A DNA stretch of 64,000 bases. It comes from Phycisphaerales bacterium (GTDB lineage: Bacteria > Planctomycetota > Phycisphaerae > Phycisphaerales > UBA1924). The stretch covers positions 126,226 through 190,225 of the forward strand of contig JAJDDK010000007.1 of assembly GCA_029260345.1 (NCBI GenBank), written 5' to 3'. The number at the start of each line of letters is the position of its first letter. Position 1 is the first letter of the stretch. Positions 21,159-59,040 of the stretch are shown piece by piece. A program made the position numbers and the translations under genes. Under the pieces are notes generated by a model, which saw only the letters and a list, made by a program, of their open reading frames with translations, was not told the origin of the DNA and did not search any database.

Positions 21159-21212
21159 GGGTGGAGATTCTACGGGGCTGGGCGGAGGCGTCGGGATCGG
21201 TAGAGTGCGCCC

Positions 21213-22508: not shown

Positions 22509-22577
22509 TGCAAAAGACGGTCGCCAACCGATATCCCTTTCAGGACGTTTGTTCGCACACCCTGAGAGGATCAATCG

Positions 22578-34230: not shown

Positions 34231-34477
34231 GGCTGGTCCTCTGATCTCGGAGGAGGTCATGGGAAATGGTCGAGCCAGCGATATTACAGGCGGGGTGTTT
34301 CAGAGCAATGGTCTTGGGGAAACGCCGGGTATTACCCAGTTTCACTCAATGCGTCAGCCCGACCCGGACACGCTCAATTGGGCATTTTTCTGGCTCTTTG
34401 GGTAAGAAACGGAATAGAGTGAAGGTGGAGCTGTCGCGGGTGCGTACAGCCGGGAACTCATCGTGGGGACGATGCAT

Positions 34478-36283: not shown

Positions 36284-36456
36284 ATGGCACAGAGCGAAAT
36301 GTGACGTCCGAGAAACACGGGGAGACAACTCGATTTCACTGCGGCATAGCGGAATTGTCTTGTTCAATTTCGTGTGAGCGGGTACTTTTTTAGGCGGAGC
36401 GTGCTGTAGTGCGCGTTTCGGGAACAATTCATCTGACCTCGTGGGGACGAGAAAAC

Positions 36457-42182: not shown

Positions 42183-42821
42183 TCAGGGAATTTCCAGTGC
42201 CTCATGGGGAACTTCAACATTCTCGTCGTTGTAGTACGACAACACCCAGTCCACGCGCCCGGATCGGTACAGGTCTTCAAAGAGCAGCACACTCGAAACA
42301 CAGTAGCGCGTCCCGATGCCTTTTCGAATCTCGATCAGCGCCCGTTCGGCGGCGTCGGCGCCGACTTCCTTGCGATATGGACGCATGCTGGTGAGCGCAT
42401 CAAACGAGTCGACCACGGCAAAGAATCGCGCGCCGAGCGGAATCTCCTCGCCGCGCAGTTTGTCCGGGTATCCGCCGCCTCCCCACTGCTCGTGGTGATG
42501 GCGAACAAGATTCAGGACGACCATGTCCGTCTCGCCCATCGCGATGAGCCGGTCATACCCGGCGACGGGATGCGTCTTGATGATCGCGAACTCTTCGTCG
42601 GTAAGCGCTTCGGGCTTTTGAAGTATGTCCGTCGGGATGTCGAGTTTGCCGAGATCATGCAGCGCGGCGCCACGCGCGATGCGCGGCAAAAGTTCATCAT
42701 CCATGCCGGCGAGCTCCGCCAAAGCGCGCGTGTACAGCACCACGCGCCACGTGTGCGACGCCGTTGAGAGATCCTTCTTCTCGATCTCGGCCACGAGTTT
42801 CTCAAGTTCCGACGTGTTCAT
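42183..42821 (-). CDS. HD-GYP domain phosphodiesterase (c-di-GMP signalling)
   Basis: 'HDLGKL', 'HHEQWGGGGYP'. Confidence 0.8.
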   Translation of the reverse strand: MNTSELEKLVAEIEKKDLSTASHTWRVVLYTRALAELAGMDDELLPRIARGAALHDLGKLDIPTDILQKPEALTDEEFAIIKTHPVAGYDRLIAMGETDMVVLNLVRHHHEQWGGGGYPDKLRGEEIPLGARFFAVVDSFDALTSMRPYRKEVGADAAERALIEIRKGIGTRYCVSSVLLFEDLYRSGRVDWVLSYYNDENVEVPHEALEIP

Positions 42822-43306: not shown

Positions 43307-44401
43307 TCAGGCGTTCGTGTCGCGCCCGAGCAATTGCTGAAGGCGGTTGTAACTTTCTTTATCGCGACCGATCAATTGATCCACTTGCATATCCGCGTGG
43401 TAACTCGATCGCACCATCGGGCCGGATTCAACCACCGCAAAGCCGCGGGCGAGGCCCTGGTCGCGGTAACGGTCGAAGACTTCCGGCTCGACGAAACGGT
43501 CAATCGGTAAGTGGTTCGGCGTGGGCTGGAGGTATTGCCCGATTGTGAGGATGTCCGTTTGCGCCCGAGTCTGAAGATCGTCCATCAGTTCGAGCACTTC
43601 ATCATCGCGCTCGCCGATGCCGACCATGATGCCGGTCTTCGTCACCATTCCCGCGTCTTTGCAACGCTTCAACAACTCGACCGAACGGTCATATTTCGCT
43701 GAAGGGCGCACCGCGGGATACATGCGCGGCACCGTCTCCACGTTGTGATTGAGAATCTCCGGCCGCGCGTCGATTACATCCTGAAGCGCCTCCCAATTTC
43801 CTTCGAAGTCCGGGATCAGCACTTCGATGGAGAGATTGTTGTCGCAGGCTTCGCGCGTGCGCAGGACGGTCTCGGCCCAGATCGCGGCGCCGCCGTCTTT
43901 GAGTTCATCACGATTCACACTGGTGATCACGATGTGGCGCAGTCCAGCGCCTTCGACCATGAGCCTTACGGATTCCGCGACGCGTTTGGGTTCATCAAGA
44001 TCAAGCACGGGCGGCTTGCCGGTTTTCACGTTGCAGAAGCCGCAGGCGCGGGTGCAGGTGTCGCCGAGGATCATGATCGTCGCGACGCCGCGGGCCCAGC
44101 ATTCGCCCATGTTGGGGCAGCCGGCCTCTTCGCAGACGGTGTGGAGCTTGTGCTCACCGAGAATGGCGCGGAGGTTGTGGTAGCCGGGGCCGCCGGGGAG
44201 CTGGGCGCGGAGCCACTTGGGCTTGCGCTTGGCCTGCGGCATTTGTTTGGCCCCGCCGTCGTTGTTCAGCACCATGCCGGTCAGGCTGAAGGCGGGCTTG
44301 TCGATGCGGCGCATCGGGTCACCGCCGGCAGGCCTCGGATGGCGCTGAATCCCCTTTGTGCGGGGCGTGGCGGGGGTCGAAGTGGGCGGCGGGGTGGACA
44401 T
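43307..44401 (-). CDS. lipA: Lipoyl synthase
   Basis: 'CEEAGCPNMGEC' and 'CTRACGFC' radical-SAM Cys clusters. 'SVNRDEL'. Start ATG 44401 ('MSTPPP…'). The upstream 370 codons of the track ORF are not LipA. Confidence 0.85.
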   Translation of the reverse strand: MSTPPPTSTPATPRTKGIQRHPRPAGGDPMRRIDKPAFSLTGMVLNNDGGAKQMPQAKRKPKWLRAQLPGGPGYHNLRAILGEHKLHTVCEEAGCPNMGECWARGVATIMILGDTCTRACGFCNVKTGKPPVLDLDEPKRVAESVRLMVEGAGLRHIVITSVNRDELKDGGAAIWAETVLRTREACDNNLSIEVLIPDFEGNWEALQDVIDARPEILNHNVETVPRMYPAVRPSAKYDRSVELLKRCKDAGMVTKTGIMVGIGERDDEVLELMDDLQTRAQTDILTIGQYLQPTPNHLPIDRFVEPEVFDRYRDQGLARGFAVVESGPMVRSSYHADMQVDQLIGRDKESYNRLQQLLGRDTNA

Positions 44402-44797
44402 GGGACCGCAAGTGTAGTCGGTCAGGAATGCCCCGAAGCGGAGCTTTCGCGCGAACTTCCCGGCCCTCAGACCGATAGTACCGGTCGGAGATGAGGGTGA
44501 AACTGGGCAAACAGGGTCAACCCGTGGCGTGTGTCGGTCGATCACACAGTCGGGTGATTCGTGCGCAAGGGCGTCCCGAGCCACCTCAGAGTGCATTCGT
44601 TGACAGCGCGGGGGCCGGTGATACCGTGACCGATTCGCCCGCGGGAACCTCGGAGTCGGCACGCGCGGGGAGCCGACCCGAACACCGAGCGAGTCCCCGA
44701 GCAGGGCGAACTGAAGAATTGCCCGACCAAGGAGTGAGCCGTGGCTGGATGTAATGTCGATCGCGCAAGCGCTGGCCGACCCACACGCACACGCTGG

Positions 44798-46312
44798 ATG
44801 CCGATACTCGGCGCCCTGGCGCTGGGCGGAATGGCCCTCTCCGGCTGCACCAACGAATTGGATTCCTGGTGGGATCCGAGCATCGTTGGTCGCTGGGAGT
44901 TCACCCCAACGGTGGTCCCCATTCTCGAACGCATCGACGTCATCGAAGATGACACCGGTGAGTACGTCGAGAAAAGCGAGATCATCCCCGAAGACCTGAT
45001 CCCCGAAGCCGTGGAATATGAAATCACGCCGGGCGACCAGCTCCTCATCGAAATTTTCGACTTCATGGCGCCGAACGTGCCTTCGCAGCTTCAGCGCGTT
45101 GTAGACGGTCGCGGCAACATCGATCTGCCGCAGCTCGGCCGCATTCCGGTCAATGGGTTGACCGCACGACAAGTTGAAATGCGAGTGGTCGAAGAATTGC
45201 GCAATCAAGGCATTATTCAGGACGGTCTCGTGACCGTGCAGGCGCTGGCGCAGCGTGACGCGACGTACAGCATCTTTGGCGCCGTGCCGCGTGTCGGTCG
45301 CTACATCATCCCCGCGCCGAATTTCCGGCTGCTTGACGCGATGACGGAAGCAGGCGGCATTCCGCCAACCATTCCGGTCGTGTACGTGATTCGTCAGGTG
45401 CCGCTTTCTGACGAAGTCACCATGGGGCTGGGTGTGGATCCCGCCGCCGAACCCGGACGACCGCAAGACCCGCAGTCGCCGAACAATGAGGGACGCAATC
45501 TCGAGGACTTGATCGAGCAACTGACCGAGCCCGAGGGCAACGGTTCGCCGGCGGCGTTCTCCAGCGCCTTCCAGTCGGGCCAGTCGAGCCAGCCGCAGTC
45601 ACAGAATCGACTTCAGAATTTCATCGACTTACCGGACGACGACAGCGCCGCACAGCCACAATCCGGCGACAACACGCTTGAAGAAGCGACGGATGGCCAG
45701 TGGGTCTTCCTCAATGGCGAATGGGTGCGCGTTGCATCGAATCAGCCCAACGGAGCCACCGGTTTGGCCGATGGGCCGGACCTGCTCGCCCAAAGCATGG
45801 GCAGCCCAGCAGATCTCGTGACCCAGCGCGTCATCGAGGTCCCGACGCGGCCGCTCCTCCAAGGCAACGCATCGTTCAATATCGTGATCCGTCCCGGCGA
45901 CACCGTTCACGTGCCCAACCCCGAACAGGGCTTCGTCTACGTCGCGGGTCGCGGCATCGCACGACCGGGTGTGTACAACCTTCCTGGTGCAGGTCGCCTG
46001 ACGCTGACCAAAGCCATTATGGCCGCGGGCGGCCTCTCACAGATCGGTATTCCGGCCCGTACAGACCTCACCCGCATGGTCGGTCGCGACCGCCAGGCGA
46101 CGATTCGTCTGAACGCGAAAGCCATCTTTGAAGGCACCGAGCCGGACGTTTTTCTGAAACCGGACGACGTCATCAACATCGGCACGACGTGGTGGGCCCA
46201 GCCCTTGGCGATCGCCCGAAACGGCTTCCGAACCACGTACGGCTTCGGCTTCCTGCTGGACCGAAACTTCGGTAACGACGTCTTCGGACCGCCGCCGTTC
46301 AGCCGTCAGTAA
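44798..46312 (+). CDS. Polysaccharide export protein (Wza/GumB-like; Poly_export + SLBB domains), lipoprotein
   Basis: Lipobox 'LSGC'. 'PGDQLLIEIF', 'NIDLPQLGRIPVNGLTARQVE', 'IFGAVPRVGRYIIP'. A second SLBB copy near the C-terminus. Start ATG 44798. Confidence 0.75.
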   Translation: MPILGALALGGMALSGCTNELDSWWDPSIVGRWEFTPTVVPILERIDVIEDDTGEYVEKSEIIPEDLIPEAVEYEITPGDQLLIEIFDFMAPNVPSQLQRVVDGRGNIDLPQLGRIPVNGLTARQVEMRVVEELRNQGIIQDGLVTVQALAQRDATYSIFGAVPRVGRYIIPAPNFRLLDAMTEAGGIPPTIPVVYVIRQVPLSDEVTMGLGVDPAAEPGRPQDPQSPNNEGRNLEDLIEQLTEPEGNGSPAAFSSAFQSGQSSQPQSQNRLQNFIDLPDDDSAAQPQSGDNTLEEATDGQWVFLNGEWVRVASNQPNGATGLADGPDLLAQSMGSPADLVTQRVIEVPTRPLLQGNASFNIVIRPGDTVHVPNPEQGFVYVAGRGIARPGVYNLPGAGRLTLTKAIMAAGGLSQIGIPARTDLTRMVGRDRQATIRLNAKAIFEGTEPDVFLKPDDVINIGTTWWAQPLAIARNGFRTTYGFGFLLDRNFGNDVFGPPPFSRQ

Positions 46313-46500
46313 GCCATGGCCGGGGTTGACGATGAGGCTCGGAATCCGAACCGAACTCGGCGCGAACTTCGCTGGCCGAATGGCGTAGTAGCGGTTGTGT
46401 CCGGCGGCACAGGCTCCGCTGGAGGGACGAGAGTTGGTGGGAGGTCGGTCCGCGCGGTGGAAATGCGGACCCGCCTGAAGACCGGAGGGTCAAGACGCAG

Positions 46501-47424
46501 ATGAGCACGGCGGGCGCCAACCCGGCGGAGGGTGTCCAAGCGGACGCTGCCCTTGCGCGCTGGGTGACACCGGCGAATCTCATCATTGCCGGCCTGACGC
46601 TGTTCGGATTCCTCGCCCTCTTCTATCAGTGGTTCGGCTTTCAACACCGCTTCAGTTGGGGCAGCGATGACTGGGCGCACGCCTACGTCGTGCCTCTGAT
46701 TTCCGGCTATGCAATCTGGAAAGAGCGCGACCGCTTAGCGCTCATGACGCCGCAACTGTTTTGGCCCGGCTTGCTTCCTTTGCTGCTGGGCATTGTGTGC
46801 TACTTCTTCTTCATGCTTGGCTTCCCCAATCACATGGGGCAAGGCTTCTCGATTGTGTTGTGCATATACGGACTCGTGCTCCTGAATCTTGGCCCGAACA
46901 TCACGTCACTGCTGACCTTCCCGATCGCGTACCTCGTGTTCGCTGTCACGATTTCCGAACGCGTGATGCAGGGCGTCACGTTCCAATTGCAACTCATCGC
47001 CACCAAGGGCGCCTACGTCCTTCTGAATGTCATGCAAATTACGACGGACATTGCGGGCAATACACTCACGATCCACAAGAGTTCGGGCGAAACGATCCCG
47101 CTCAACGTCGCCGAAGCATGCAGCGGCATGCGCATGGTCATCGCGTTTTACGCGCTCGGCGCCGCCGTCGCGTTTCTCTCAACACGGCTCTGGTGGCAGC
47201 GCATAGCGATCCTTTTGCTCGCCGGGCCGATCGCGGTGTTCGTCAACGTGCTGCGTGTCGCGTCGCTTGGCGTCCTGAGCTTGTGGGACGAAGAATTCTC
47301 AAAGGGCAATGCGCACATGGCCGTTGGCCTGCTGTGGCTGGTGCCTGCCTTCTTGCTGCTGATGTTCAGTGTGTGGGCGCTGAAGCGCATGGTCGATGAG
47401 CCGCAACCGGGAGCCGCCACATGA
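46501..47424 (+). CDS. Exosortase (XrtA-like)
   Basis: 8 TM helices. Active-site 'AEACSGMRM' Cys and 'NVLRVASLG' Arg motifs. EpsI gene follows with ATGA overlap. Confidence 0.75.
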   Translation: MSTAGANPAEGVQADAALARWVTPANLIIAGLTLFGFLALFYQWFGFQHRFSWGSDDWAHAYVVPLISGYAIWKERDRLALMTPQLFWPGLLPLLLGIVCYFFFMLGFPNHMGQGFSIVLCIYGLVLLNLGPNITSLLTFPIAYLVFAVTISERVMQGVTFQLQLIATKGAYVLLNVMQITTDIAGNTLTIHKSSGETIPLNVAEACSGMRMVIAFYALGAAVAFLSTRLWWQRIAILLLAGPIAVFVNVLRVASLGVLSLWDEEFSKGNAHMAVGLLWLVPAFLLLMFSVWALKRMVDEPQPGAAT

Positions 47425-48386
47425 CCGGCGCACGACTCCTGCATCCGGGCGCCATCGCTTCCGTCGTCATTCTCGGCGCCGCCGCGGTCGGACTGAGCGC
47501 AGCGATCGCCGTCAGCGGTGCGCAACTCCGCAAACGACCGATCAATCCGCCGGACGGACTTCGATTCCCGACACTTCCCGCAGAAACAGAAACATGGGAA
47601 CGCTTCGGCGCCGATCCCCCGCCGCTGTCCGCCGAAATTCTTGAAAGCCTCGGCACGCAGAACTATTTCTCGCGCAACTACATCAAGAAGGGCTCGATGG
47701 AAGCGGGAGAGCCCATTGTGATCAACTTGCATTGCGCGTATTACACGGGCATGCCGGACACGGTGCCGCACGTCCCCGAAGCCTGCTTCGTTGGTGGCGG
47801 CATGACGCTGGTGTCAAATGCGACGCTGGTTCCGATTCCATTTGATCTCAATCGATTCCCGCCGGATGAAATGCTCGAGACCAGTGAGATTGATCCAGAC
47901 ATCTATGGCGTCGTGCGTCAGGGCCGCATGGGGCCTTACTCCGAAGCGCCGGGCAACCGCGTGCACATGCCATTCGGGTTTGACGATCTCAAGCTGCGCG
48001 TCACTGAATATGAAGCAACGGACTCACAACGTGTCTTTGCCGGCTATTTCTTCATCGCCAATGGCTGGGGCGTGAGTGACGCCCTGCAAGTGCGCCAGCA
48101 GGCGTTCGACTTGTCGGCGGACTATGCGTTCTACGCCAAAGTGCAATTCACCAGCTATCAAGTAGAGTCTCCGCAGGAATTGAGCGAAATCGCCGCGGAC
48201 CTGTTGAACGAGTTGATGCCCGAAATCATGCGGCGTGTGCCTGACTGGACCGAGGTCATCGTTGGCGCGTACCCCCCACCGGACGATGTGGCGGAGGCGA
48301 ACACGCGCGACCGGCGCGGCACACAGGAATTCGAAGAGTGGAAAGAAGACTTCAATGCCCCCGACCTGCCCGGACGGCGGCGCTGA
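47421..48386 (+). CDS. Exosortase-associated EpsI-family protein
   Basis: N-terminal TM anchor. 'VPHVPEACFVGGG' (EpsI HxPxxCxxGxG-type motif). Translationally coupled to the exosortase. Confidence 0.7.
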   Translation: MTGARLLHPGAIASVVILGAAAVGLSAAIAVSGAQLRKRPINPPDGLRFPTLPAETETWERFGADPPPLSAEILESLGTQNYFSRNYIKKGSMEAGEPIVINLHCAYYTGMPDTVPHVPEACFVGGGMTLVSNATLVPIPFDLNRFPPDEMLETSEIDPDIYGVVRQGRMGPYSEAPGNRVHMPFGFDDLKLRVTEYEATDSQRVFAGYFFIANGWGVSDALQVRQQAFDLSADYAFYAKVQFTSYQVESPQELSEIAADLLNELMPEIMRRVPDWTEVIVGAYPPPDDVAEANTRDRRGTQEFEEWKEDFNAPDLPGRRR

Positions 48387-48425
48387 CTCCCCTGATGACC
48401 GAACGACCCCGAGGATGCTGAGGCC

Positions 48426-51400
48426 ATGGCCACCAAAGTCAATGTGAAATTCGTCATCGTGCTCGCCGCCGCACTCGCCGTGCTGTTCGGCGGCGTTGCG
48501 TTCGTTGCCTATCAGAAGCTCACCACTTCCGGTGAGGAATACGAGGCGAAGGGCGATGCGCTGATGGCCGTCGGCGATTTCGATGAAGCGTCCGACATGT
48601 ACCGGCGCGCCGTCAATCATGATCGCACGAACATCGTCTGGCTGACCAAATGGCGCGACTCGCTTCTCAAAGTCGTTCCCGAAACACAAGTCGAGTACGT
48701 CAAGTACTACCAAGACTACTACTTGGGCATTCTGAATCAGCTCGCGGCGCTTCAGGACAGAGACCCCATCGCTCAGCGCGCTTACCTTGAGCCGTATTAC
48801 CAGCAGCTTGTCAAAGGCGGCGCCAATGCCGAGTCTTGGCAGCGACTCATTGACCACGTCAACAACATGCTCCAGCGTTTGCCGGAGGATGACGTCGTCA
48901 CCAAACAGATTCATCGGTATCGCGGCCTGGCGCGCCTCGCCCGCATGGAGCAAATCGAAGAGCGTGACGAAGAACGCGAGCAAACACTCGCTGACCTTCG
49001 CATTGCGATTGAGGCGGATCCAACAGATGTGGAGTGCGCCGTTGGCGTCTTGAAGTGGCGATTCATTGAATGGAAACGTGCGCACCGGTTGCGCCGGGCG
49101 CAAACCGCCGATCAGCTTTGGACGGCGCTCGGCGACGAAGTCGTGGCGATGAAGGAGTCGTTCCCGAATTCGCCGCCGATCCTGCTGACCGAACTGCAAA
49201 TCATGATCGAGCGCGTTGTGCACCTCGAAGACGACCCGGCCGCTCGCGTGCGCATGGTCAACAACATGAAGGGCTTTGAGGACCGGCTGCTCGAATCGAT
49301 TGAGGCCACGGCGCCCGAGTCGATCGACGAAAACATGCTGCGTCGCACGTACAACTCCTTAAAGCCGCTGCAACCAAGTAACTACGCCGCAACCATGCTT
49401 CCCATCGTGACGCGCGTGTCTGAGGCCAAGCCAAATGACGCCGGTCTCATGTTGCTGCGCGCCGAAGTGTTGAATGATCTCAATCGACAGGAAGACGCCC
49501 TGCAGCAGTTGCGCCAAGTGGCGGAAATGCCGGACCTTCCGGTGAGCCTGGCTGGCCTCATGCTGGTCGCCAATCAGCGCTACACGGCGATGTACAGCCA
49601 AGGCGACACGGTGCTCGACCTGCGCGAAACCACGCAGGATCCGGCCAAGCGCGCGGAACTCTTGAAGGAAGCCCACCAGTTTCGTGATGAGCTTGCGGAG
49701 AACATCACGGGTGGTGAAAACTCGCCCGTCGTGATGCTCCTCGATGGGCGTCTGGCGCTGGCCGAAGGAAACGCGAGCGAAGCCGTCGAGCGACTCAAAG
49801 CGCTGGACGATCGCGTTGGTGGACGCGACAGCGAAGTCATCAAGTTGCTGGGCCGGGCGCTGCTTGAAGCAAACATTCTCGGCGCCGCGCGGCAGCAGTA
49901 CGCGCGGCTCGTGGAAGCAAATCCGAGCGACATTCAATCGCTGTACACCCTCGCCAGCATCGAGAAGCGTCTTCAGAATTATCCGGCGGCTATCCAGCGC
50001 TTTGAAGAAGTGCTGGCGCTCACGCCTGAATTCATGGAAGCGCGGCTCGAGATCGCCGCAATTCGTGCGGAAACGGGCATCATCGACATCCGCGGAACGG
50101 TGCAAGGAGTAGATCCGGTTCGAGTCTCACTGATCCGCTGGCGGGCCCTCATGCAGCAGGAAGAGCCGGAGCCGGACGAGGCGCTCGCCATTCTGCGCGA
50201 AGCGCGTCGTGACAACGGCGACAACCCCATGATCCTCAATGCGATGATCATGCACTTCAATCAAGAAGGAAACGCCGAGCAGGCGATGGCCGTCGCCAAT
50301 GAGGCCATTGCGCTGTATCCCGAAGATCAGCGCTTTGCAGACTGGAAGCGACGCCTTGATCAGCTTGAAGTGGGATTGTCCATCGACGATCGCCTGCGAC
50401 TCATTGATGAGTCCACCGCCGAACCCATTGAGAAACTCATTCAGAAATACGCACTGCTCAACAGCGCGGGGCGCACGGACGAAGCCGAAGCATTTTTCGC
50501 CGAAGCGCAGAGGCTGGCGCCGAACAATCCGGACATCATCGAAAAACAGTTCATGCAAGCGCTGGAGCATGAAGACTTCGCGCAGGCACGGTCCATCGCC
50601 GCGACCGCGGCGCGACTCAACCTGGACAGTGTGGACGGCCTCCTTTATCAGGCGCGGCTCGAATTCGCGCAGGAAAACTTCCAGCAGGCGTTGGCGACAC
50701 TTCAGCAGGTGACGGGGCGCTTGCCGTTCGATCCTCTGGCGCTTCGATTGCTCGGCCAGACGTATCTGCAAATGGGGCGGGCCAACGATGCGTTGAACGC
50801 CTTGGCGCAAGCCTTTGAAAACAAGCCGGACGGCGTGCTGGTGGCGCGACTTTATGTGCAGGCATTGATTCAGCTCCAGCGGCACGATGAAGCGCTGCGG
50901 ATCGTGAAGCGAGCGCGCAAATTCAACGGCGTCGATCGCATGCTCATGAATCAATGGCTCGCGCTGGAGGAGATGGCCGGTGACCGTGCCTTGGCGCTCG
51001 CGGAACGCACCAAGCGGTACGACGCCAATCCGAATGACACGAACAACACCGCCGCCTTGATCCGCATGCTGATGGACGACGAGCAATGGGCCAAGGCGCG
51101 CGTCGTGATTGATGCGATTCGCGAGGCACAACCCGACAGCGCGGATCTCGCTCGGCTGGATGCGAACTGGCACGCGCATCAAGGAAACATCGAGGACGGC
51201 GCGAAGATCCTTCAAGGGTTCACCGGTGACGAAGACACCCTCGCCGGATCCGTGCGACTGGCGCAGTACTACTCCGACTTTGCCCAATACGATCTGGCGG
51301 TCACGACGCTTGAACAGGCGCGCACGCTGCAGGACAGTGGCCAGAAAGTGGTCGAACTGCTGATCGCTGACTTGTACTTTCGCACGGACCGCTACGACAA

Positions 51401-52988
51401 AGCCATTCCGTTGTTCCGTGAGGCGCTCAGCGCCGATGAGGACACCGAGTCCGGCGATGTGGCCCGGCGATACGCCGATGCGCTGATTCGATTGAAGCGG
51501 TATTCCGAAGCGGAGCAAGCGCTGCTCGCCCTCAAAGACAGAGCGCGAAGCAACACGCGCACGAACATCCTTCTCTCCCGCGCCGCCGCAGGGAACGGGG
51601 ACGATCGGGCCGCGATCAATTACCTCGACGCCGCCGTCGCCGCTTCACCCAACAGTCCGGAGCCATTCATTGAGCGAGCGTCGTTCTATTCTGATCGAGG
51701 CCAGCGTCTCGAAGATGTGTTGCAGGACTTGAACCAGGCCATTCGTTTGGCGCCGTCGTCCGTGCCCGCGCGTCAGTTGAAAGCGACGGTGCTTGTCCGC
51801 AACAATCGGATGGCTGAGGCGTCGCGTGAATTGCAGCAAGCCGTCACTGCCAATCCGGACAACCGGGAGCTGCGCCAATTGCTCATCGAATCGCTCACGC
51901 GCATGGGGCAGAATGGCGAAGCGATCGTTGCCGCGACGAGCGCTTCGCGCCAGTTCCCCGACGATGCGGGTTGGCTGCTGACCGCTGGTGATCTGCACGC
52001 GCGTGATCGACGCTGGAAGGAAGCGCTCGGGTTTTACACGCAGGCGTACGACCTGGATCCTTCGGCGCGCGTCGCCATCCGCATGGGACAATCGCTGATT
52101 GAAGTGGATCCGCCTCGATATCAGGATGCGATCGACCTGCTTGCGAAGCACCTGGATGAGGAAAATCACCTCACGACCGTCTTGCTCCTGCAATCGCAGG
52201 CGCACGCAAAACTGGGGAACTCATCCGTCGCGCGCCGGCTTGCGACCGATTCATTCAATGCCGCGAACAAACCAGCGGATATTCGCGATTGGTTCAGCGG
52301 CGTCGGTCTGCTCTTTGAGACGCGTGATGCGCTGCTTGACTACATTCGCAATCAGACGCCTAAGGCCGAACTGGAGCCGATCTACCTCGTGCTGCTGTCG
52401 CGGCTTGAAGCGCAAGATTCTGCGATGCACTCGTCCGTCATCGACAAGCTTCGCGCCATCGAAGATCGTCAGATGGATACGGCCACGCGCATGGATCTGT
52501 ATCGCATCGTCGGCGGTCTGCTCTATATCAATGGCTCGTACGAGGATGCGGCGGATGTTTTCCGCGACGCTGTGGCCCTGGCGCCGGAAGACCTCGAATT
52601 CAATAACAACCTCGCGTACCTGCTGGCTCACCACCTGAATGACGCCCAAGGCGCGTTGGCCCCCGCCGAGAAAGCCGCCCAGCTCGCGCCCGTGGACCCA
52701 AACGTCCTCGACACACTGGGCTGGGTGTATTTCCAGCTTGGCCGCCTGAGCCAGGCGCAGGCGACCTTAAATCAGGCGCTGCAAAACGGACGTGACGCGG
52801 CCGAGCGCGTGCCGGCGCTCCTTCACCTCTCAGAAACCATCCTCGCGCAGAATCAGCCGGATTCGCACAGCCGCGCCCTCCGCAATGCAGAAGCCGCCCG
52901 TGAGATGATTGAACGATCGCCCGCCCTGAAGCAGTCGTTCGGACCTCAATTGGATGCGGTTATGGAGAAGCTCAATCGGTCCGAATGA
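48426..52988 (+). CDS. Giant TPR-repeat protein (1520 aa) of the exosortase/EPS locus (PrsT-like), N-terminal TM anchor
   Basis: Single N-terminal TM helix followed by >30 TPR-like repeats. GAGG SD. Lies between epsI and the wzc-like gene. Confidence 0.7.
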   Translation: MATKVNVKFVIVLAAALAVLFGGVAFVAYQKLTTSGEEYEAKGDALMAVGDFDEASDMYRRAVNHDRTNIVWLTKWRDSLLKVVPETQVEYVKYYQDYYLGILNQLAALQDRDPIAQRAYLEPYYQQLVKGGANAESWQRLIDHVNNMLQRLPEDDVVTKQIHRYRGLARLARMEQIEERDEEREQTLADLRIAIEADPTDVECAVGVLKWRFIEWKRAHRLRRAQTADQLWTALGDEVVAMKESFPNSPPILLTELQIMIERVVHLEDDPAARVRMVNNMKGFEDRLLESIEATAPESIDENMLRRTYNSLKPLQPSNYAATMLPIVTRVSEAKPNDAGLMLLRAEVLNDLNRQEDALQQLRQVAEMPDLPVSLAGLMLVANQRYTAMYSQGDTVLDLRETTQDPAKRAELLKEAHQFRDELAENITGGENSPVVMLLDGRLALAEGNASEAVERLKALDDRVGGRDSEVIKLLGRALLEANILGAARQQYARLVEANPSDIQSLYTLASIEKRLQNYPAAIQRFEEVLALTPEFMEARLEIAAIRAETGIIDIRGTVQGVDPVRVSLIRWRALMQQEEPEPDEALAILREARRDNGDNPMILNAMIMHFNQEGNAEQAMAVANEAIALYPEDQRFADWKRRLDQLEVGLSIDDRLRLIDESTAEPIEKLIQKYALLNSAGRTDEAEAFFAEAQRLAPNNPDIIEKQFMQALEHEDFAQARSIAATAARLNLDSVDGLLYQARLEFAQENFQQALATLQQVTGRLPFDPLALRLLGQTYLQMGRANDALNALAQAFENKPDGVLVARLYVQALIQLQRHDEALRIVKRARKFNGVDRMLMNQWLALEEMAGDRALALAERTKRYDANPNDTNNTAALIRMLMDDEQWAKARVVIDAIREAQPDSADLARLDANWHAHQGNIEDGAKILQGFTGDEDTLAGSVRLAQYYSDFAQYDLAVTTLEQARTLQDSGQKVVELLIADLYFRTDRYDKAIPLFREALSADEDTESGDVARRYADALIRLKRYSEAEQALLALKDRARSNTRTNILLSRAAAGNGDDRAAINYLDAAVAASPNSPEPFIERASFYSDRGQRLEDVLQDLNQAIRLAPSSVPARQLKATVLVRNNRMAEASRELQQAVTANPDNRELRQLLIESLTRMGQNGEAIVAATSASRQFPDDAGWLLTAGDLHARDRRWKEALGFYTQAYDLDPSARVAIRMGQSLIEVDPPRYQDAIDLLAKHLDEENHLTTVLLLQSQAHAKLGNSSVARRLATDSFNAANKPADIRDWFSGVGLLFETRDALLDYIRNQTPKAELEPIYLVLLSRLEAQDSAMHSSVIDKLRAIEDRQMDTATRMDLYRIVGGLLYINGSYEDAADVFRDAVALAPEDLEFNNNLAYLLAHHLNDAQGALAPAEKAAQLAPVDPNVLDTLGWVYFQLGRLSQAQATLNQALQNGRDAAERVPALLHLSETILAQNQPDSHSRALRNAEAAREMIERSPALKQSFGPQLDAVMEKLNRSE

Positions 52989-53103
52989 ACGAGTCGGGAG
53001 CTAGCCAATCACCTCAACCGGCAACGTCCGAGAATGACGAACACCGGCCGAACCAAGCCTCTTTCGATGAAACGAACCCAGATTTGACCCCGAGCAAGTA
53101 GTC

Positions 53104-55371
53104 ATGGCGATGCAACCAAACAATGGACCCGTGCGGGGAGCCCCGCCTCGACAAGCGCCTTCCCCTGCTGGCAGCGCCGGCATGGGTGTGGCGCTCGATC
53201 CGGTCAAGCTCTTCAAGCAATACTTCTGGTGGCTTGCCGCCGCAGGATTCCTCGGCATTGCGCTTGGCGTCGTGGGCCACTTTGCGTTGCTGCGCTTCTA
53301 TCCGTTCTATACGTCTGAAGTCAATTTTGAGATGACCTCTCAGATCATCGACGCGACGGATCAGGTCACCACCGTCACCAACAACGAAGCCGAAATCGAA
53401 CGTTTCATCGGCGGCCAGGTCTTTCTGATGACGTCGGATCAGTTGCTGCTGCGCGCGGCCAATGACCCGACGCTGCGCAATGAAACCAACTGGGCCAAGA
53501 AGTACATTTCCAAGTCCACAGGACTTCCGAATTACGAGGACATGCTCGACGCGCTGAAGGACATCATCACGGCGCGCTCAATTCCTGATTCGAACATTGT
53601 CGTGCTTCGCTGCACCACGCAGAATCCGCAAGACGCGACGACGATCGTGAAAGCGGTCAAGAACGCCTACCTGCGCCAGCTCGATCAGGATAAGACCGCC
53701 GAAGCGCAGGACATTCTTGAATCACTCACGAGCCAGCTCACAGGCGTGCAGGAAGAGCGGCGTCTGCTCGAAGAGCGCATGGATCGCTTGCTCGAAGACA
53801 ATCAGGTCACCAGTCTTGACGAACGCGTGGCATTGGCTTCGCAGGAATTGAACTTCCAGCTTCCGATGCTTGGCGAGATCAAGCGCGGCCTCAAAGTCGC
53901 GCGCGATCAGCTCGCCGCGTACGAAGAGCAGCTTTCCGCGCCGGGCGGCGCCACGTTCCCCGAAATCGTGCGCACGCAGGTGACCACGCATCCGATCATC
54001 CAGCGATTCGAAGTGCAGCTCGCCGACCTCGAAGCGGCGATGCGCGGCAGCCTTGAGCGATTGGGCCGCAACCACATCGCCGTCAAAGCGTTGCAGCAAA
54101 ACATTCAATCCGTGCGCGAACAAATGGCGCTCGAAGAATCCCGTCTGCTTGATGAAATCTTTATTCAACTCATCGAGTTCACGCGGTCGCAGATTCGCAG
54201 TTACGAAGCCGCTGAGATCGAGACCCAGACCACGGTGACGGCCGCCGAGCGCCGTCTTGCCGATCTCAAACGCGTTGGTGAGGAATACAACCAGCTTCAG
54301 ATGGAGCTGGTCCGGCGCTCCGAGGAACAAGGCGACCTCCAAGGCGCTATCTCCAACCAGCGTGCGATTGTCGAACGAGCCGCAAGCAAACGCGTCAAAG
54401 TGATGTACGACGCGCAGGTGCCGGACAAGCCTACATTCCCGCAGATCGTCATTATGGTGCCGGCGATCACACTGCTGGTCGGCGGTCTTGCCGCCGGCCT
54501 GATTGTGCTGCGTGAAGTGCTTGAACAGCGCGTCCGCACGCCGCAGGACATTTCGCTGATCCCGCGTGCTCGCGTGGTCGGTGTGATTCCGGACGCCGGC
54601 GAAGATCCCTCGCAACCAACCTCCGCCGAGCGAGCCGTGCGCGAGAATCCCGCAGGCGTCATCGCGGAATCTGTTCGTCAGGTCCGCACGAACCTCATCA
54701 AGACGTTCACTCAGCGCGGCCACAAGGCGCTGCTGGTCGTGGGCGGCATGCCGGGATCAGGCGCCAGTTCACTCATTAGCAATCTGGCGTCCAGCCTGGC
54801 CGCGATCGACATGCGCGTCCTCGTCATTGACGGCAATTTCCGTCGTCCGGCGATGCACAAAATCTTCGGAGTCGCGGAAGGACCTGGCCTTGGTGAAGTG
54901 CTGCTCGGCACAACGCAACTCGCAGACGCCATTCAGCACACCGATGAGCCCGGTCTGGAAGTGCTCACGGCCGGCGCTCCCGGCAATCGCATTTTCGAGC
55001 GGCTGACCACATCGTCGATGAGCCGCGTCCTCGATGAAGCACGGGCGAGGTACGACCTCGTGCTCGTGGACTCGCCCCCGGCGATCGTCGCGGGCGACGC
55101 GATGGCGCTGGCGAACCGTTGCGATGCGTCGCTGCTGGTGGTTCGTGCCTACGGCGAGAAGCGCGGCCTCGTGCAGCGCGTGCGCGATCAGCTTGATGAG
55201 ACCCGTGCCGATCAGATCGGCGTCGTGATCAACGCGGTGCGCTCGGCGGCGGGCGGCTACTTCAAGCGAAACATCCGCGCCACGCACGAGTACCAGAACG
55301 GCCTCGCCAAGGACCTCGCCGAAGCGCGCGAAGCACGTCAGCGCGACGAAGCGCGATCATCGTCGTCGTGA
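53104..55371 (+). CDS. Polysaccharide co-polymerase (Wzz/GumC-like) fused to BY-kinase-like ATPase domain with degenerate Walker A
   Basis: Two TM helices bracket a periplasmic coiled-coil Wzz domain. The C-terminal P-loop NTPase has 'VVGGMPGSGASSL' (no Walker A Lys), Walker A' 'VLVIDGNFRRP' and Walker B 'LVLVDSPP'. No Tyr-rich tail. Confidence 0.75.
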   Translation: MAMQPNNGPVRGAPPRQAPSPAGSAGMGVALDPVKLFKQYFWWLAAAGFLGIALGVVGHFALLRFYPFYTSEVNFEMTSQIIDATDQVTTVTNNEAEIERFIGGQVFLMTSDQLLLRAANDPTLRNETNWAKKYISKSTGLPNYEDMLDALKDIITARSIPDSNIVVLRCTTQNPQDATTIVKAVKNAYLRQLDQDKTAEAQDILESLTSQLTGVQEERRLLEERMDRLLEDNQVTSLDERVALASQELNFQLPMLGEIKRGLKVARDQLAAYEEQLSAPGGATFPEIVRTQVTTHPIIQRFEVQLADLEAAMRGSLERLGRNHIAVKALQQNIQSVREQMALEESRLLDEIFIQLIEFTRSQIRSYEAAEIETQTTVTAAERRLADLKRVGEEYNQLQMELVRRSEEQGDLQGAISNQRAIVERAASKRVKVMYDAQVPDKPTFPQIVIMVPAITLLVGGLAAGLIVLREVLEQRVRTPQDISLIPRARVVGVIPDAGEDPSQPTSAERAVRENPAGVIAESVRQVRTNLIKTFTQRGHKALLVVGGMPGSGASSLISNLASSLAAIDMRVLVIDGNFRRPAMHKIFGVAEGPGLGEVLLGTTQLADAIQHTDEPGLEVLTAGAPGNRIFERLTTSSMSRVLDEARARYDLVLVDSPPAIVAGDAMALANRCDASLLVVRAYGEKRGLVQRVRDQLDETRADQIGVVINAVRSAAGGYFKRNIRATHEYQNGLAKDLAEAREARQRDEARSSSS

Positions 55372-55402
55372 CGTATTCTTTCATCGTCACCAGTGGAAGT
55401 GG

Positions 55403-56794
55403 ATGAACACGCAGTCGCCCATCTTTGATTTCCCGGGGCTTGGTGATTTCACCCCGCCCCCGTCCGCCGCCGACCCCCTCGCGGTCGAGGAGATGACGCG
55501 GCTCTCGATTTTTCATGGCTACATCGGCGTCTTCGTCGTCGCGTTCCTTGCGACGCTCCTGGTGACGCCGATTCTGCGCCGACTCGCCATCGCCAACGGC
55601 GTCATCGATCATCCCGACTACGAACGCAAAGAGCACAAACTCCCCGTCGCCTACCTCGGCGGCGTCGGGATTTACATCGGGCTGCTGCTTGCCTTCGCCT
55701 ACAGCTTCTTTGCGCCAAGCGGTTTCTTTGATCGGCACCCGTCGGAAGTGACACAACACGCCGTGCCGTTCTCCGTGCTGCTGGGCATGACGCTCATCAT
55801 GTTCGTCGGTTTGCTGGATGACATGATCGGCATCAGCCCGCGCATCAAGATTTCCGGGCAGCTTCTCGCCGCCGCTGCGCTGGCGATGGACGACGTCGGG
55901 GTCAAAGTCGCGGCGGGCGTTTTGACGCCGTTCGCTCGACTCATCGGCGTACAAGAAAATCTCCTCTTTACATTCGATCTTCCGTTCTCGATCCCGATGT
56001 TCGGCGCCCAGATACAGATCGACGTGGTCTACTGGGTGGGCACGGGGATCATCGCGATCTTTATTCTCGGCGCGTGCAACGCGAGCAATCTTCTGGACGG
56101 TCTGGACGGGCTGCTCACCGGCGTCACGGCGATTGCCGTCGCCGCCATGCTGATCATCGCGCTGGGCCTCGGCCTCGCCAGTGACGGACCGCTCGATGGC
56201 GCTCGCGTTGTCATCTGCCTCGCGGTGCTTGGTTCGTGCCTCGGATTCCTCCCCCACAACTTCAAACCAGCGACAATCTTCCTCGGCGATTGCGGCTCCA
56301 TGCTGCTTGGCTTCATGACGGTCGTCGTGATTCTGTCGCTGGGTGACACTGGCAAAACGCCACTAGTCGTTGCGGGGCTCCTGATTTACGCCGTGCCGAT
56401 CATGGATACAACGCTGGCGATCGTTCGCCGCAAAATGTCGGGCAAGCCGATGAGCGAACCGGACGACCAGCACATTCATCACTTGCTGAAGAGATCGTTC
56501 GGCGTGACCCGCGCCGTCTTCACGCTGTATGGCATCGGCGCCGTGTTCGGGATTCTCGGGATTCTGGTGTCGCTGGGCCGCGCCCGCGTGGCGTATGTCT
56601 TTGCACTGGTGCTTGCGGCATTCATCGGTGTCACCGCCGTGAAGATCGCTCGGCTGAAGATTTTTCAGGAGCAGGCCAAGGCGATCGCCGAAGCGCGGAT
56701 GCGGGCCACCCAGGCGCCGCTACCGCCCCGCCCGACGCGAGCCGCGCGGCATTCCGCCGAAGATCCATCCCCGGTCCAGCCGACACGCTCCTGA
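55403..56794 (+). CDS. Polyprenyl-phosphate sugar-1-phosphate transferase, MraY/WecA family (GT4), with extended C-terminus
   Basis: 'LLDDMIGISPRIK', 'NASNLLDGLDGL', ~11 TM helices. Confidence 0.8.
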   Translation: MNTQSPIFDFPGLGDFTPPPSAADPLAVEEMTRLSIFHGYIGVFVVAFLATLLVTPILRRLAIANGVIDHPDYERKEHKLPVAYLGGVGIYIGLLLAFAYSFFAPSGFFDRHPSEVTQHAVPFSVLLGMTLIMFVGLLDDMIGISPRIKISGQLLAAAALAMDDVGVKVAAGVLTPFARLIGVQENLLFTFDLPFSIPMFGAQIQIDVVYWVGTGIIAIFILGACNASNLLDGLDGLLTGVTAIAVAAMLIIALGLGLASDGPLDGARVVICLAVLGSCLGFLPHNFKPATIFLGDCGSMLLGFMTVVVILSLGDTGKTPLVVAGLLIYAVPIMDTTLAIVRRKMSGKPMSEPDDQHIHHLLKRSFGVTRAVFTLYGIGAVFGILGILVSLGRARVAYVFALVLAAFIGVTAVKIARLKIFQEQAKAIAEARMRATQAPLPPRPTRAARHSAEDPSPVQPTRS

Positions 56795-56977: not shown

Positions 56978-57349
56978 ATGACCGATCGTTACATCGATGA
57001 ATTTCGAGCGCGCCGAGCCGCCGGTCACGAGCGCTTGCTCGACACTGATCATCTCGGCCTGAAAAGATTTCTGCGGCTCGACTCCGACGCCTACACCGAT
57101 CGCTCAGCCGAAGGTCGCCTTGATGATCGCACCAAGGAACTCCTCGGCCTCGTTGCGTCCGCCGTGCTGCGCTGCGATGACTGCATTGCGTATCACGTCG
57201 AACAAAGCATGAAGCTCGGCTGGACGAAGGAGCAACTCGAAGACGCATTGAATGTGGCTCTCGTCGTTGGCGGGTCGATCACCATCCCGCATCTACGCCG
57301 CGCGCGGCAGGCGATGGATGAATTGCTTGAAGAAAACGATGCGTCCTAG
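56978..57349 (+). CDS. Carboxymuconolactone decarboxylase-family protein (AhpD-like)
   Basis: AGGAG SD. 'CDDCIAYHVEQ' CxxC…H AhpD-core motif. Confidence 0.75.
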   Translation: MTDRYIDEFRARRAAGHERLLDTDHLGLKRFLRLDSDAYTDRSAEGRLDDRTKELLGLVASAVLRCDDCIAYHVEQSMKLGWTKEQLEDALNVALVVGGSITIPHLRRARQAMDELLEENDAS

Positions 57350-57361
57350 TTTGTAACGCAC

Positions 57362-57400
57362 CAAAAAGAACAGCGGTCCCCGGCATGCCGAGGACCGCTG
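57362..57400. terminator. Palindromic hairpin between convergent genes, likely terminator for the minus-strand PEP-CTERM gene
   Basis: Near-perfect 30-nt palindrome 'cagcggtccccggcatgccgaggaccgctg'. An A-run 5' on the + strand gives a U-run on the minus transcript. Confidence 0.35.
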
Positions 57401-57453
57401 CGAGCATCGTGTGAAAACAATTTCCCGTTCAGCGTTGAGAGATCTGAACGAAA

Positions 57454-58227
57454 TTAGCGACGACGACGGGTCGCCGCGAAACCAGCCATGCCGAAGAGCG
57501 CCAAAGCGCCCGGGGCGGGGATGAGCTGGTCGGTGATGTTGTCGATAAGCAATGAACCGTTGCCACCGCCGAAGTTTCCTCCAACGATGCGGTCAAGGCC
57601 ACCGGCGCCAACCGCGAGCTCCTGAACGATGTCGTGACCGCTGAAGATCAGCGAGCCATCCTGGTACACATTCAGCATGTTGCCGGCGAGCACTTCGATG
57701 CCGATCTGCGTGGAGACGCCAGCAGCCCAGCTTCCGCTCGTGCTGATGACCGCGCCCGCTCCAGCGACGATCTGAACGACGTCAATGCCGCCGCCCGGCT
57801 GGAACAACACACGCGTATTGATCGTGCCGCTGTCGATGTGATCGGTCTCAAATCCGTATGTCGTTCCGTCGTCGACGGTGGCGACAAGGTCAGCCGCGAT
57901 CAGCCCGAATGACGAAGCGCCAAAGTCGGGGGAGGCGACGAATCCGACGGCGCCAGCAGCCACGTTTGCAGACGCCGTGCGGGATCCAAAGCCGCCGACA
58001 CCGGAATTCACAATCGTTCCAGTGTTGGTGAGCCAGCCGAACTGACCAGCGCCACCAAGCGCGAATCCTTCGAAATCTTCGAAGAAACCAACGCCTTCGA
58101 CCGGCTGGGTAGTCGGCGCCGGCGCAATCATCTGCACAGACGTGATCAGATTGCTGACTTCTCCTGCGCTTGCGAACGCTGCAGGAAATGCAGCCATCGC
58201 CAGTGCAGCCATTGCTCGTACTCTCAT
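57454..58227 (-). CDS. PEP-CTERM (variant 'PAP') sorting-domain protein, exosortase substrate candidate
   Basis: GGAGG SD 7 nt before ATG 58227. Signal peptide 'MRVRAMAALAMAAFPAAFASA'. Gly-rich body. C-terminus 'IPAPGALALFGMAGFAATRRRR' has a P-x-P motif, a TM helix and an Arg cluster. Confidence 0.65.
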   Translation of the reverse strand: MRVRAMAALAMAAFPAAFASAGEVSNLITSVQMIAPAPTTQPVEGVGFFEDFEGFALGGAGQFGWLTNTGTIVNSGVGGFGSRTASANVAAGAVGFVASPDFGASSFGLIAADLVATVDDGTTYGFETDHIDSGTINTRVLFQPGGGIDVVQIVAGAGAVISTSGSWAAGVSTQIGIEVLAGNMLNVYQDGSLIFSGHDIVQELAVGAGGLDRIVGGNFGGGNGSLLIDNITDQLIPAPGALALFGMAGFAATRRRR

Positions 58228-58547: not shown

Positions 58548-58790
58548 TCACATCGTCGCTGAGGTATACGGCAGAAGCCCCATGTAGCGGGCTCGCTTGA
58601 CGGCCTGCGCCACCATGCGCTGCTCGCGTGCGGAAAGACCCAAACGCTTGCGGGCGTAGATCTTCCCGTTCGGGCTCATCATGCGGCGGAGGGCGTCAGC
58701 GTCCTTCCAATCCACAAACAGCTTGCCCTTGGCGCTTTTCTGAGTGACGCTCGCGCCGGAACTGGCGCCAAATCGATTAAAACGACTCAT
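58548..58790 (-). CDS. rpsR: 30S ribosomal protein S18
   Basis: 'KDADALRRMMSPNGKIYARKRLGLSAREQRMVAQAVKRARYMGLLPY' matches the S18 core. Start ATG 58790. The upstream 63 codons of the track ORF are leader. Confidence 0.85.
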   Translation of the reverse strand: MSRFNRFGASSGASVTQKSAKGKLFVDWKDADALRRMMSPNGKIYARKRLGLSAREQRMVAQAVKRARYMGLLPYTSATM

Positions 58791-58941
58791 GGAATCACAA
58801 CCTCCGATGATTGCATCGAGACCACTGCGGCCCCGGAATCGAGCCGAGGAGTGTATCCGAGGATTCCAGCCGCGCCAAGCGGGCGCTGGAGGAGTGATAC
58901 GGATCATTCTTGGGCCGGGTGGCGTGGTATGGCCCGAGTCC

Positions 58942-59040
58942 GGGTGCCGTGGTACGGCGGCTGAAAGCCGCAGTGCCACGAATAGTCGCTAGTTCACAGT
59001 TCAACCGTGGCACTGCCCTTCGGGCCGTACCACGGCGCCC
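58942..59040. other. Highly structured ~100-nt intergenic element (multi-stem with UUCG and GAAA-type loops) between polyprenyl synthase and rpsR
   Basis: 14-bp closing stem (58942..58955 with 59026..59039). Inner hairpins 'cggc-tgaaa-gccg', a 10-bp stem 'cagtgccacg/cgtggcactg' with a 25-nt loop, and 'ccc-ttcg-ggg'. The strand of the functional transcript is unresolved. Confidence 0.3.

Follow-up and report, generated by a model that had tools for sequence, protein, structure and literature searches.

A conserved exosortase/EpsI operon with polysaccharide export genes in Phycisphaerae

We analyzed a 64,000-nucleotide stretch of a Phycisphaerales bacterium genome (hereafter the window; GenBank assembly GCA_029260345.1, contig JAJDDK010000007.1, positions 126,226 to 190,225), in which six open reading frames (ORFs) lie head to tail on the plus strand. 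They encode, in order, a Wza-like outer membrane polysaccharide export (OPX) lipoprotein, an exosortase, an EpsI-family protein, a giant tetratricopeptide repeat (TPR) protein, a Wzc-like polysaccharide co-polymerase (PCP) and a WecA-family transferase. An earlier note on this DNA had described this order and read it as an exosortase/EpsI-centred polysaccharide export operon, resembling the loci that combine PEP-CTERM protein sorting with exopolysaccharide (EPS) genes. Gene content and family scores uphold that core reading. The clustering is far beyond chance, as the same order recurs at all 80 other loci examined. The six genes probably constitute a vertically inherited Phycisphaerae operon that couples PEP-CTERM-type sorting to polysaccharide export, working in the manner of an XrtA/EPS system and belonging to no named subtype.

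The operon and its conservation

The gaps between the six genes, in operon order, are 188, −4, 39, 115 (193 from the alternative start of the Wzc-like gene at 53182) and 31 nt, and there is no strong plus strand terminator within the block. An independent Logan assembly (SRR15505512), of which one contig of 20.8 kb falls inside the window, carries the same genes over 19 kb at 99–100% protein identity, and the window sequence contains no N, thus an assembly artefact is unlikely and the reported gene order holds. The start of the first gene had been placed at 44402, which we reject. The frame from 44402 meets four stop codons ahead of 44741, and 44402 is itself the first base of an alternative upstream ATG (44402–44400) of lipA, which lies on the minus strand (43307–44314). 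The divergent intergenic region between lipA and the Wza-like gene (44315–44797), interrupted by these in-frame stops, presumably holds the operon promoter and 5′ untranslated region. It matched no Rfam family and no sigma-70 consensus; the sigma-70 search was uninformative, with 2 promoters found against 2.2 expected. We considered a regulatory RNA in the 480-nt leader and rejected it, as an Rfam scan of the whole window gave a single match at the gathering level, a tRNA gene at 13945–14018 on the minus strand.

A scan of one genome per species identified 570 genomic stretches encoding a relative of the exosortase. The best 80 were examined and, together with the window's own DNA (L001), make a table of 81 loci. 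The 80 derive from Phycisphaeraceae, Phycisphaerales, Tepidisphaera and unclassified Planctomycetota, with exosortase identities of 44–73%. As far as its contig reaches, each retains the Wza, exosortase, EpsI, TPR, Wzc and WecA genes in this order. The exosortase, EpsI and TPR genes are found at 81/81 loci, the Wza-like gene at 78, the Wzc-like at 75 and the WecA-like at 72; where one of the latter three is missing, the contig is short or ends there. Divergent lipA lies upstream of the operon in 66/81 loci, and the gaps between genes are short or overlapping across the set.

No locus has a split or rearranged block. The sole change is the presence or absence (53 versus 18) of a gene for an NAD-dependent epimerase/dehydratase of the short-chain dehydrogenase/reductase (SDR) type, which sits between the Wzc- and WecA-like genes in 53/71 loci (L010 and L015–L081; for example L015:18967-20091). 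Neither the window nor its 18 closest relatives have this gene, and no SDR homologue lies anywhere in the window. The presence of a nucleotide-sugar epimerase/dehydratase gene inside the operon ties it to sugar metabolism. Across loci, the identity of lipA to its window counterpart rises and falls with that of the operon genes (Spearman 0.51–0.62), and the GC content is 0.59–0.65 across the window with no compositional break at 44–57 kb; both observations fit vertical inheritance.

The earlier note had remarked that the cluster contains no flippase, polymerase or additional glycosyltransferases, which is correct and is repeated at every locus examined. It had also listed several features as atypical. 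The unusual features are real but not peculiar to this locus, being fixed clade-wide in the 80 loci. Since the whole clade keeps both the large TPR protein and a block free of glycosyltransferase, Wzx and Wzy genes, these represent a lineage-typical architecture rather than a local anomaly.

The exosortase and EpsI

The exosortase (46501–47424, plus strand, 307 residues) passes the generic models of its family: PF09721 (153.6 bits against a cut-off of 25.7), TIGR02602 (117.5 against 105.55) and TIGR04178 (54.1 against 23). Residues Cys207 (ACSGMRM), Arg252 (NVLRV) and His272 are invariant in 18 aligned relatives of 48–80% identity, and the catalytic role of this Cys/Arg/His set is established for exosortases. 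More than 1000 homologues were found at E ≤ 1e-10, annotated merely as "exosortase" or "exosortase/archaeosortase family protein", and the named sources are all Phycisphaerales or Planctomycetota metagenome-assembled genomes.

None of the named subtypes accommodates the protein. It scored 129.6 bits with XrtA (TIGR03109), where the cut-off is 208 and the strongest of 18 relatives comes to about E 7e-41, still well below it. The scores were 137.4 bits with XrtD (TIGR04152) against 400 and 131.3 bits with XrtW (NF038142) against 425. The models for XrtB, C, H, N, O, T, V, X and Z, CrtA–C and ArtB/C all gave at most 78 bits against cut-offs of 100–313 (NCBIfam 20.0). Seventeen further relatives had E-values of 4e-47 or weaker with the named subtypes, none near the cut-offs. 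The "XrtA-like" label of the earlier note therefore does not hold, XrtD and XrtW both scoring higher; the protein is not an archaeosortase, and its link to EPS genes stands.

EpsI (47421–48386, plus strand, 321 residues) has an N-terminal membrane anchor. Residues 22–134 match profile positions 2–107 of 203, the N-terminal half, of PF11984 (36.9 bits against 26.1), and the protein also matches the EpsI part of the XrtD model; the EpsI model TIGR02914 gave no match at E ≤ 0.01. The reading frame overlaps the exosortase stop by 4 nt (ATGA), as had been noted earlier, and judged by this junction EpsI is translationally coupled to the exosortase.

In 27/81 loci the exosortase and EpsI are fused in frame as one ORF, which aligns continuously to positions 8–386 of 486 of the XrtD model. 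Four of these fused relatives scored 164–196 bits with XrtD and 134–162 with XrtW. The clade thus resembles XrtD (VPLPA-CTERM) and XrtW, the exosortase-EpsI fusion types, in that these are the best-scoring named models and that a part of the relatives are fused. It differs from them in its scores (137–196 against 400 and 425), in the separate genes of the window, and in a sorting motif of [IV]P[AST]PG rather than VPLPA.

Candidate sorting substrates

One PEP-CTERM-like protein had been reported near the operon, and we find it at 57454–58227 on the minus strand. This candidate exosortase substrate (257 residues) begins with the signal peptide MRVRAMAALAMAAFPAAFASA and ends in the tail IPAPG-ALALFGMAGFAAT-RRRR. 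Its ORF opens with a GTG at 58308, and GGAGG stands 8 nt ahead of the ATG at 58227. An end-to-end alignment to TIGR02595 scored 12.7 bits against 16, and no Pfam family matched. The gene is a single-gene unit flanked by two terminator-like hairpins. One of these, a strong hairpin at 57370–57401 (minus strand, 14-bp stem, 10 G-C pairs), closes the gene and separates it from a small convergent gene of the CMD family (carboxymuconolactone decarboxylase/AhpD-like; 56978–57349, plus strand). The latter follows the WecA-like gene, as it also does in 11 other loci (12/81 including the window's own DNA). The occurrence of PEP-CTERM genes as single-gene units was noted by Haft et al. 2006 (PMC1569441).

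We scanned the C-termini of all ORFs in the window and the 80 loci (1.5 Mb) for this tail pattern. Eight proteins from 7 genomes, all within 10 kb of the operon, carry [IV]P[AST]PG followed by about 13–16 hydrophobic residues and RRR(R). Each has an N-terminal signal peptide, and the eight thereby display the full PEP-CTERM architecture of signal peptide, Pro-x-Pro, hydrophobic helix and Arg cluster. Their passenger domains are unrelated, and between unrelated members BLAST finds similarity in the tails alone. These align in register with the PEP-CTERM models, and by their sequences they are best described as a PEP-CTERM variant in which Ala, Thr or Ser stands where PEP has Glu. An enrichment of substrates beside the operon was also considered and dropped, as eight tails in 1.5 Mb are compatible with chance scatter.

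Ten secreted proteins of the window end instead in two dockerin-like repeats (DLNGDGxVNGxDLAxLLxxW). They are encoded at 2044–3429, 3452–4855, 5108–6550, 7739–9178, 12184–12960, 17223–19052 and 32965–34260 on the minus strand and at 34463–36283, 36409–38265 and 62000–63583 on the plus strand. Many end in Gly-Cys at, or at most one residue from, the C-terminus. Four were compared to the GC-type model NF041540; all align, with 19–33 bits, one lying at or above 29 (33.4) and another at 28.8. The earlier note had proposed that a dockerin-like tag is used here instead of PEP-CTERM. The tags are present but do not replace PEP-CTERM: our tail scan flagged nine of the ten but just two in the 1.45 Mb of the other 80 loci, and PEP-CTERM-like tails adjoin the operon in seven genomes. 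We reject the dockerin proteins as exosortase clients because they are nearly absent from the other 80 loci and their tails have neither a transmembrane helix nor an Arg anchor. They are unrelated to the operon, and their density is a peculiarity of this part of the genome. For Phycisphaerae, cohesin/dockerin modules have already been discussed under the name "planctosome" (PMC6461901).

The export proteins

The OPX lipoprotein (44798–46312, plus strand, 504 residues) is encoded within an ORF that opens with a GTG at 44741. The start is most likely the ATG at 44798, also the gene call on the Logan contig, which gives the lipoprotein signal MPILGALALGGMALSGC with the lipobox L-S-G-C. The protein comprises a Poly_export domain (PF02563, 54.5 bits against 28), a low-complexity linker of about 130 residues, an SLBB domain (PF10531, 32.6 against 27) and a conserved C-terminal motif, YGFGFLLDRNFGNDVFG. 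An AlphaFold2 (AF2) model built from 61 homologues has a mean predicted local distance difference test score (pLDDT) of 73.6, with cores above 90, and Foldseek superimposed it on the Wza structures 2J58 and 9R64 at E of about 1e-15; the sequence also aligns with Wza from the Protein Data Bank (PDB). Domain content, lipoprotein signal and the Wza D1–D3 fold together place the protein in the OPX/Wza family, whereas the XrtA-type exporter model pepcterm_export gave 47.3 bits, below its cut-off of 180.

The C-terminus appears to depart from Wza. No match was reported at E ≤ 0.01 to Wza_C (PF18412), the amphipathic helix that spans the outer membrane in Class 1 (Wza-type) OPX proteins, and residues 467–504 have a pLDDT of about 40–67 and only two helices, of 9 and 5 residues, in the model, which as a monomer cannot settle the nature of an oligomeric pore. 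The same C-terminal region (46170–46312) is near-invariant across the clade (WAxPLAVIRNGFRxSYGFGFLLDRNFGNDVFGxPP), although Pfam has no matching domain and confidence in the model is low there. The motif may replace the outer membrane helix of Wza or may dock to a porin. By the sequence criteria of Saidi et al. 2022 the protein would be a Class 3 OPX.

The co-polymerase (53104–55371, plus strand; alternative start 53182) passes TIGR01007 (126.2 bits against 108.05) and aligns along full-length Escherichia coli Wzc, including Wzc residues 310–707. With two transmembrane helices, a periplasmic domain and, fused at its C-terminal end, a P-loop domain homologous to bacterial tyrosine kinases (BY-kinases), it is a PCP-2a protein. 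The models for the corresponding partners of XrtA scored lower than their cut-offs (pepcterm_ChnLen, 40.8 against 279; pepcterm_TyrKin, 109 against 231). The fusion of co-polymerase and ATPase, which had been thought atypical, is the usual Gram-negative form of PCP-2a (PMC12004946), and it differs only from the XrtA loci, for which NCBIfam models the two proteins separately.

The true oddity, overlooked in the earlier note, lies in the kinase motifs, where by sequence the Walker A Lys and one Walker A′ Asp are lost. As references we took the motifs of active BY-kinases: Walker A GxxxxGK[ST], Walker A′ DxDxR, Walker B DxxP and a C-terminal Tyr cluster. In alignment with CapB, BceF and Etk, the window protein reads GMPGSGASS at Walker A, Ala replacing Lys, and IDGNFRR at Walker A′, Asn replacing the second Asp. 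All 74/74 complete clade members have Ala, Gly, Ser or Thr in place of the Walker A Lys, and a Walker A′ of D-[AGT]-N-x-R. Walker B is intact in the window (VDSPP) and in most relatives, and only two conserved C-terminal Tyr are left (GGY...EY). The protein thus lacks the signature of an active BY-kinase, and there is no Wzb phosphatase near the operon. These motifs identify it as a fused pseudokinase, a type already described. Such fused PCP-2 variants were noted by Cuthbertson et al. 2009 and are discussed by Blocher et al. 2025 (PMC12004946), where a phosphorylation-independent scaffold role is proposed for BY-pseudokinases.

Comparison with the Wza–Wzc translocon of E. coli group 1 capsule and colanic acid shows a shared OPX lipoprotein fold and a shared PCP-2a architecture. 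The window OPX differs in having no recognisable Wza_C helix and in its disordered insert of about 130 residues, and the window kinase domain in its lost Walker A Lys, one lost Walker A′ Asp and only two tail Tyr, with no Wzb, Wzx or Wzy nearby. The BY-pseudokinases EcpK/EpsV of Myxococcus and HfsB/HfsA of Caulobacter, and the fused Sinorhizobium meliloti SMc01795, share the BY-kinase fold and the loss of catalytic residues. EcpK and HfsB are likewise proposed to be phosphorylation-independent scaffolds, and fused PCP-pseudokinase forms are already listed. Unlike EcpK, in which all motifs are lost, the window clade keeps Walker B and the two C-terminal Tyr, and unlike the other BY-pseudokinase PCP-2 proteins, the window protein is embedded in an exosortase operon.

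The TPR protein and the priming enzyme

The TPR protein (48426–52988, plus strand, 1520 residues) matches TPR families over its whole length. The N-terminus is a conserved signal anchor, MAxKVNVKF followed by a hydrophobic stretch, that looks uncleaved; there is no lipobox Cys and no domain other than TPR. PrsT (TIGR02917) matched in 4 stretches with 229.7 bits, below its cut-off of 312.2, and no ORF among those scanned in the window matched a PrsK or PrsR model. The protein had been described as about twice the length of PrsT-type proteins; it is indeed oversized, with 1520 residues against 899 model positions (about 1.7-fold), but this is no local oddity, as the 74 complete copies span 1340–1704 residues (median 1530) and keep the N-terminus. 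We looked for a hidden C-terminal β-barrel of the PgaA/BcsC kind and rejected it, since the matches to those models are limited to their TPR parts and the last 280 residues read as TPR helices.

The transferase (55403–56794, plus strand, 463 residues) belongs to the WecA/MraY family of polyprenyl-phosphate N-acetylhexosamine-1-phosphate (HexNAc-1-phosphate) transferases. It matches Glycos_transf_4 (PF00953) with 104.8 bits against 27 and lies below the equivalog cut-offs of both WecA (TIGR02380, 111.9 against 326) and MraY (TIGR00445, 70.6 against 192). The motifs DD, NASNLLDGLDGL and HIHH are present, and across the loci DD, NxxNxxDGxDGL and H[IL]HH are kept. HIHH is linked to HexNAc specificity.

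Discussion

We propose the following route for the operon products. The WecA-family enzyme, placed by its family and motifs, would start a glycan by transferring HexNAc-1-phosphate onto polyprenyl-phosphate. Glycosyltransferases for the repeat unit, a flippase and a polymerase encoded elsewhere, absent as they are from the operon in all genomes examined, would complete the polymer. The Wzc-like PCP-2a and the Wza-like OPX, recognised by fold and family, would assemble into an export conduit across the envelope. Because the P-loop Lys and a Walker A′ Asp are replaced clade-wide, the cytoplasmic domain of the PCP may serve as a phosphorylation-independent scaffold, by analogy with EcpK and HfsB. 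The exosortase, with EpsI, would recognise secreted proteins by a C-terminal [IV]P[AST]PG motif with its transmembrane helix and Arg cluster, cut off the anchor and release or attach the protein at the surface or in the matrix, as its conserved residues and the candidate substrates suggest. The 1520-residue TPR protein, anchored in the inner membrane, may be a periplasmic scaffold that joins sorting to export. To our knowledge, exosortase chemistry has not been experimentally established for any exosortase, and we know of no biochemically defined reaction product.

Several observations weigh against this account. Neither the operon nor the further window ORFs that were scanned, a part of the total, encode a glycosyltransferase, Wzx or Wzy, so polymer synthesis is unproven here; the genes that build the glycan lie outside the 64-kb window, at least as judged from the ORFs scanned. 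The missing Wza_C match and the low C-terminal pLDDT of the OPX may mean that a separate porin is needed, and no porin lies near the operon. The candidate tails mostly score below the model cut-offs (TIGR02595, 7.3–16.5 against 16, one passing; PF07589, 12.3–16.9 against 20.7), and with 8 in 1.5 Mb they are no denser around the operon than scatter across a whole genome would make them. The scaffold role of the TPR protein is deduced purely from its invariant position and length. Finally, we found no paper on this clade, exosortases and PEP-CTERM in Phycisphaerae appearing only in reference lists.

A first alternative is that the operon builds a housekeeping envelope layer, in which a WecA-primed surface glycan is the acceptor for PEP-CTERM-like proteins transferred by the exosortase. 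The unusually rigid clade-wide synteny, which extends to the housekeeping neighbor lipA, would suit such a layer, as would the lack of any compositional island and of the variable glycosyltransferases that are the usual source of strain-specific EPS loci; a PCP that acts independently of phosphorylation would also imply no on/off kinase cycle. Yet there is no direct evidence of an acceptor for exosortase transfer in any organism, conservation alone is no proof of essentiality, and Wza/Wzc pairs classically serve capsules and EPS. We regard this alternative as unlikely, though it is the strongest of those considered.

Less probable still is an ordinary XrtA, or type 1 PEP-CTERM/EPS, system such as the epsD–I type of Methylobacillus sp. 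12S (Haft et al. 2006). The partner types of an XrtA locus (PMC1569441) are largely present. Together with an exosortase that has Cys/Arg/His and an adjacent EpsI, the locus encodes a Wza-like exporter, a large PrsT-like TPR protein, an initiating sugar transferase and a chain-length determinant to which a kinase-like domain belongs. The candidate substrates, with signal peptide, Pro-rich motif, transmembrane helix and Arg cluster, are also alike, as is the single-gene unit of the PEP-CTERM-like gene in the window, and XrtA is among the three best exosortase models. However, the XrtA score falls well short of its cut-off in the window and its relatives, XrtD and XrtW score equal or higher, and every XrtA-specific partner model (export, ChnLen, TyrKin and PrsT) fails. 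The TPR protein is some 1.7-fold longer than the PrsT model and carries a signal anchor instead of being a lipoprotein; the co-polymerase is fused to a kinase-like domain that is degenerate; the initiator is of the WecA type (PF00953) and not a bacterial sugar transferase (PF02397); and the tails of the clade read PAP, PTP or PSP instead of PEP. Moreover, the window locus has no glycosyltransferase, asparagine synthase-like, FemAB-like or deacetylase genes, no PrsK or PrsR was seen among the scanned ORFs, and the sigma-54 motif of the PrsR type is not enriched (32 matches against 33 expected, none well placed).

A third reading, in which the export genes work independently of the exosortase/EpsI pair and the two are neighbors only through slow genome rearrangement, is very improbable: lipA, which has no obvious functional link, does stay adjacent and shows that synteny can persist without shared function, but all six genes lie on one strand, −4 to 193 nt apart, the exosortase and EpsI are found inside the block at every locus with the OPX on one side and the TPR protein and PCP on the other, nothing except the SDR gene varies, and exosortases generally sit among EPS genes (PMC1569441).

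Returning to a vertically inherited operon that couples sorting to export, we tentatively suggest a more specific form of it, which as a whole we hold to be possible rather than probable. The operon would represent a distinct, unnamed and Phycisphaerae-wide type of exosortase system, acting as a core envelope assembly line that is passed on vertically. Its exosortase would form a clade of its own, split from or fused to EpsI, with [IV]P[AST]PG-CTERM as the cognate signal. The TPR protein of about 1500 residues would be a membrane-anchored scaffold, the PCP-2a would be fused and kinase-dead, the OPX would carry a new and conserved C-terminal module where Wza has its helix, and the primer enzyme would be of the WecA type. 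The sorted proteins would be joined to, or embedded in, a HexNAc-primed surface glycan.

Most studied exosortase loci are large, variable EPS islands in which the relevance of each partner is hard to tell. If the distinct-system reading is true, the operon offers a compact and invariant model for working out exosortase function. It is small, with six genes here and seven in most relatives, and nearly unchanged in all 80 loci, which argues for a single functional unit made up of OPX, exosortase/EpsI, TPR protein, PCP and priming transferase. The clade also supplies a large uniform set of fused BY-pseudokinase co-polymerases that bears on the recently proposed phosphorylation-independent PCP-2 subfamily. 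Since these pass TIGR01007 despite the missing catalytic Lys, annotation pipelines would mislabel them as tyrosine autokinases. There is, in addition, a curation gap, as the exosortase models of NCBIfam 20.0, XrtZ included, cover neither this clade nor its TPR partner nor the tail variant. Taken at face value, the operon is a useful and unsurprising extension of a known system to Phycisphaerae.

Neighboring genes and other features of the window

Upstream of lipA, the minus strand encodes a SpoIIE/PP2C phosphatase (40999–42114) and an HD/HD_5 protein that is HD-GYP-like (42183–42821). The phosphatase recurs near the operon in 19/81 loci and the HD/HD_5 protein in 25/81, and both are possible regulators. 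Downstream, the minus strand carries an ORF that resembles ribosomal protein S18 by sequence (58548–58979) and a trans-polyprenyl diphosphate synthase (PF00348; 59070–60134), followed on the plus strand by an N6/N4 DNA methylase (61159–61944) that lacks an obvious restriction partner.

Further from the operon, an ORF of 771 residues (20259–22574, minus strand) has LpxI N- and C-terminal domains only in residues 489–759, its first 488 residues having no Pfam match at E ≤ 0.001. The minus strand also encodes two large Ser/Thr kinases (9356–11617 and 14283–17111), one with C-terminal TPRs and one with TolB-like β-propeller repeats. The kinase at 9356–11617 appears to overlap an upstream ORF of 179 residues (11578–12117, minus strand) that resembles an extracytoplasmic function (ECF) sigma factor. 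At the start of the window (75–2033, plus strand), one ORF joins a NapH-like polyferredoxin membrane domain to TPR repeats at its C-terminal end.

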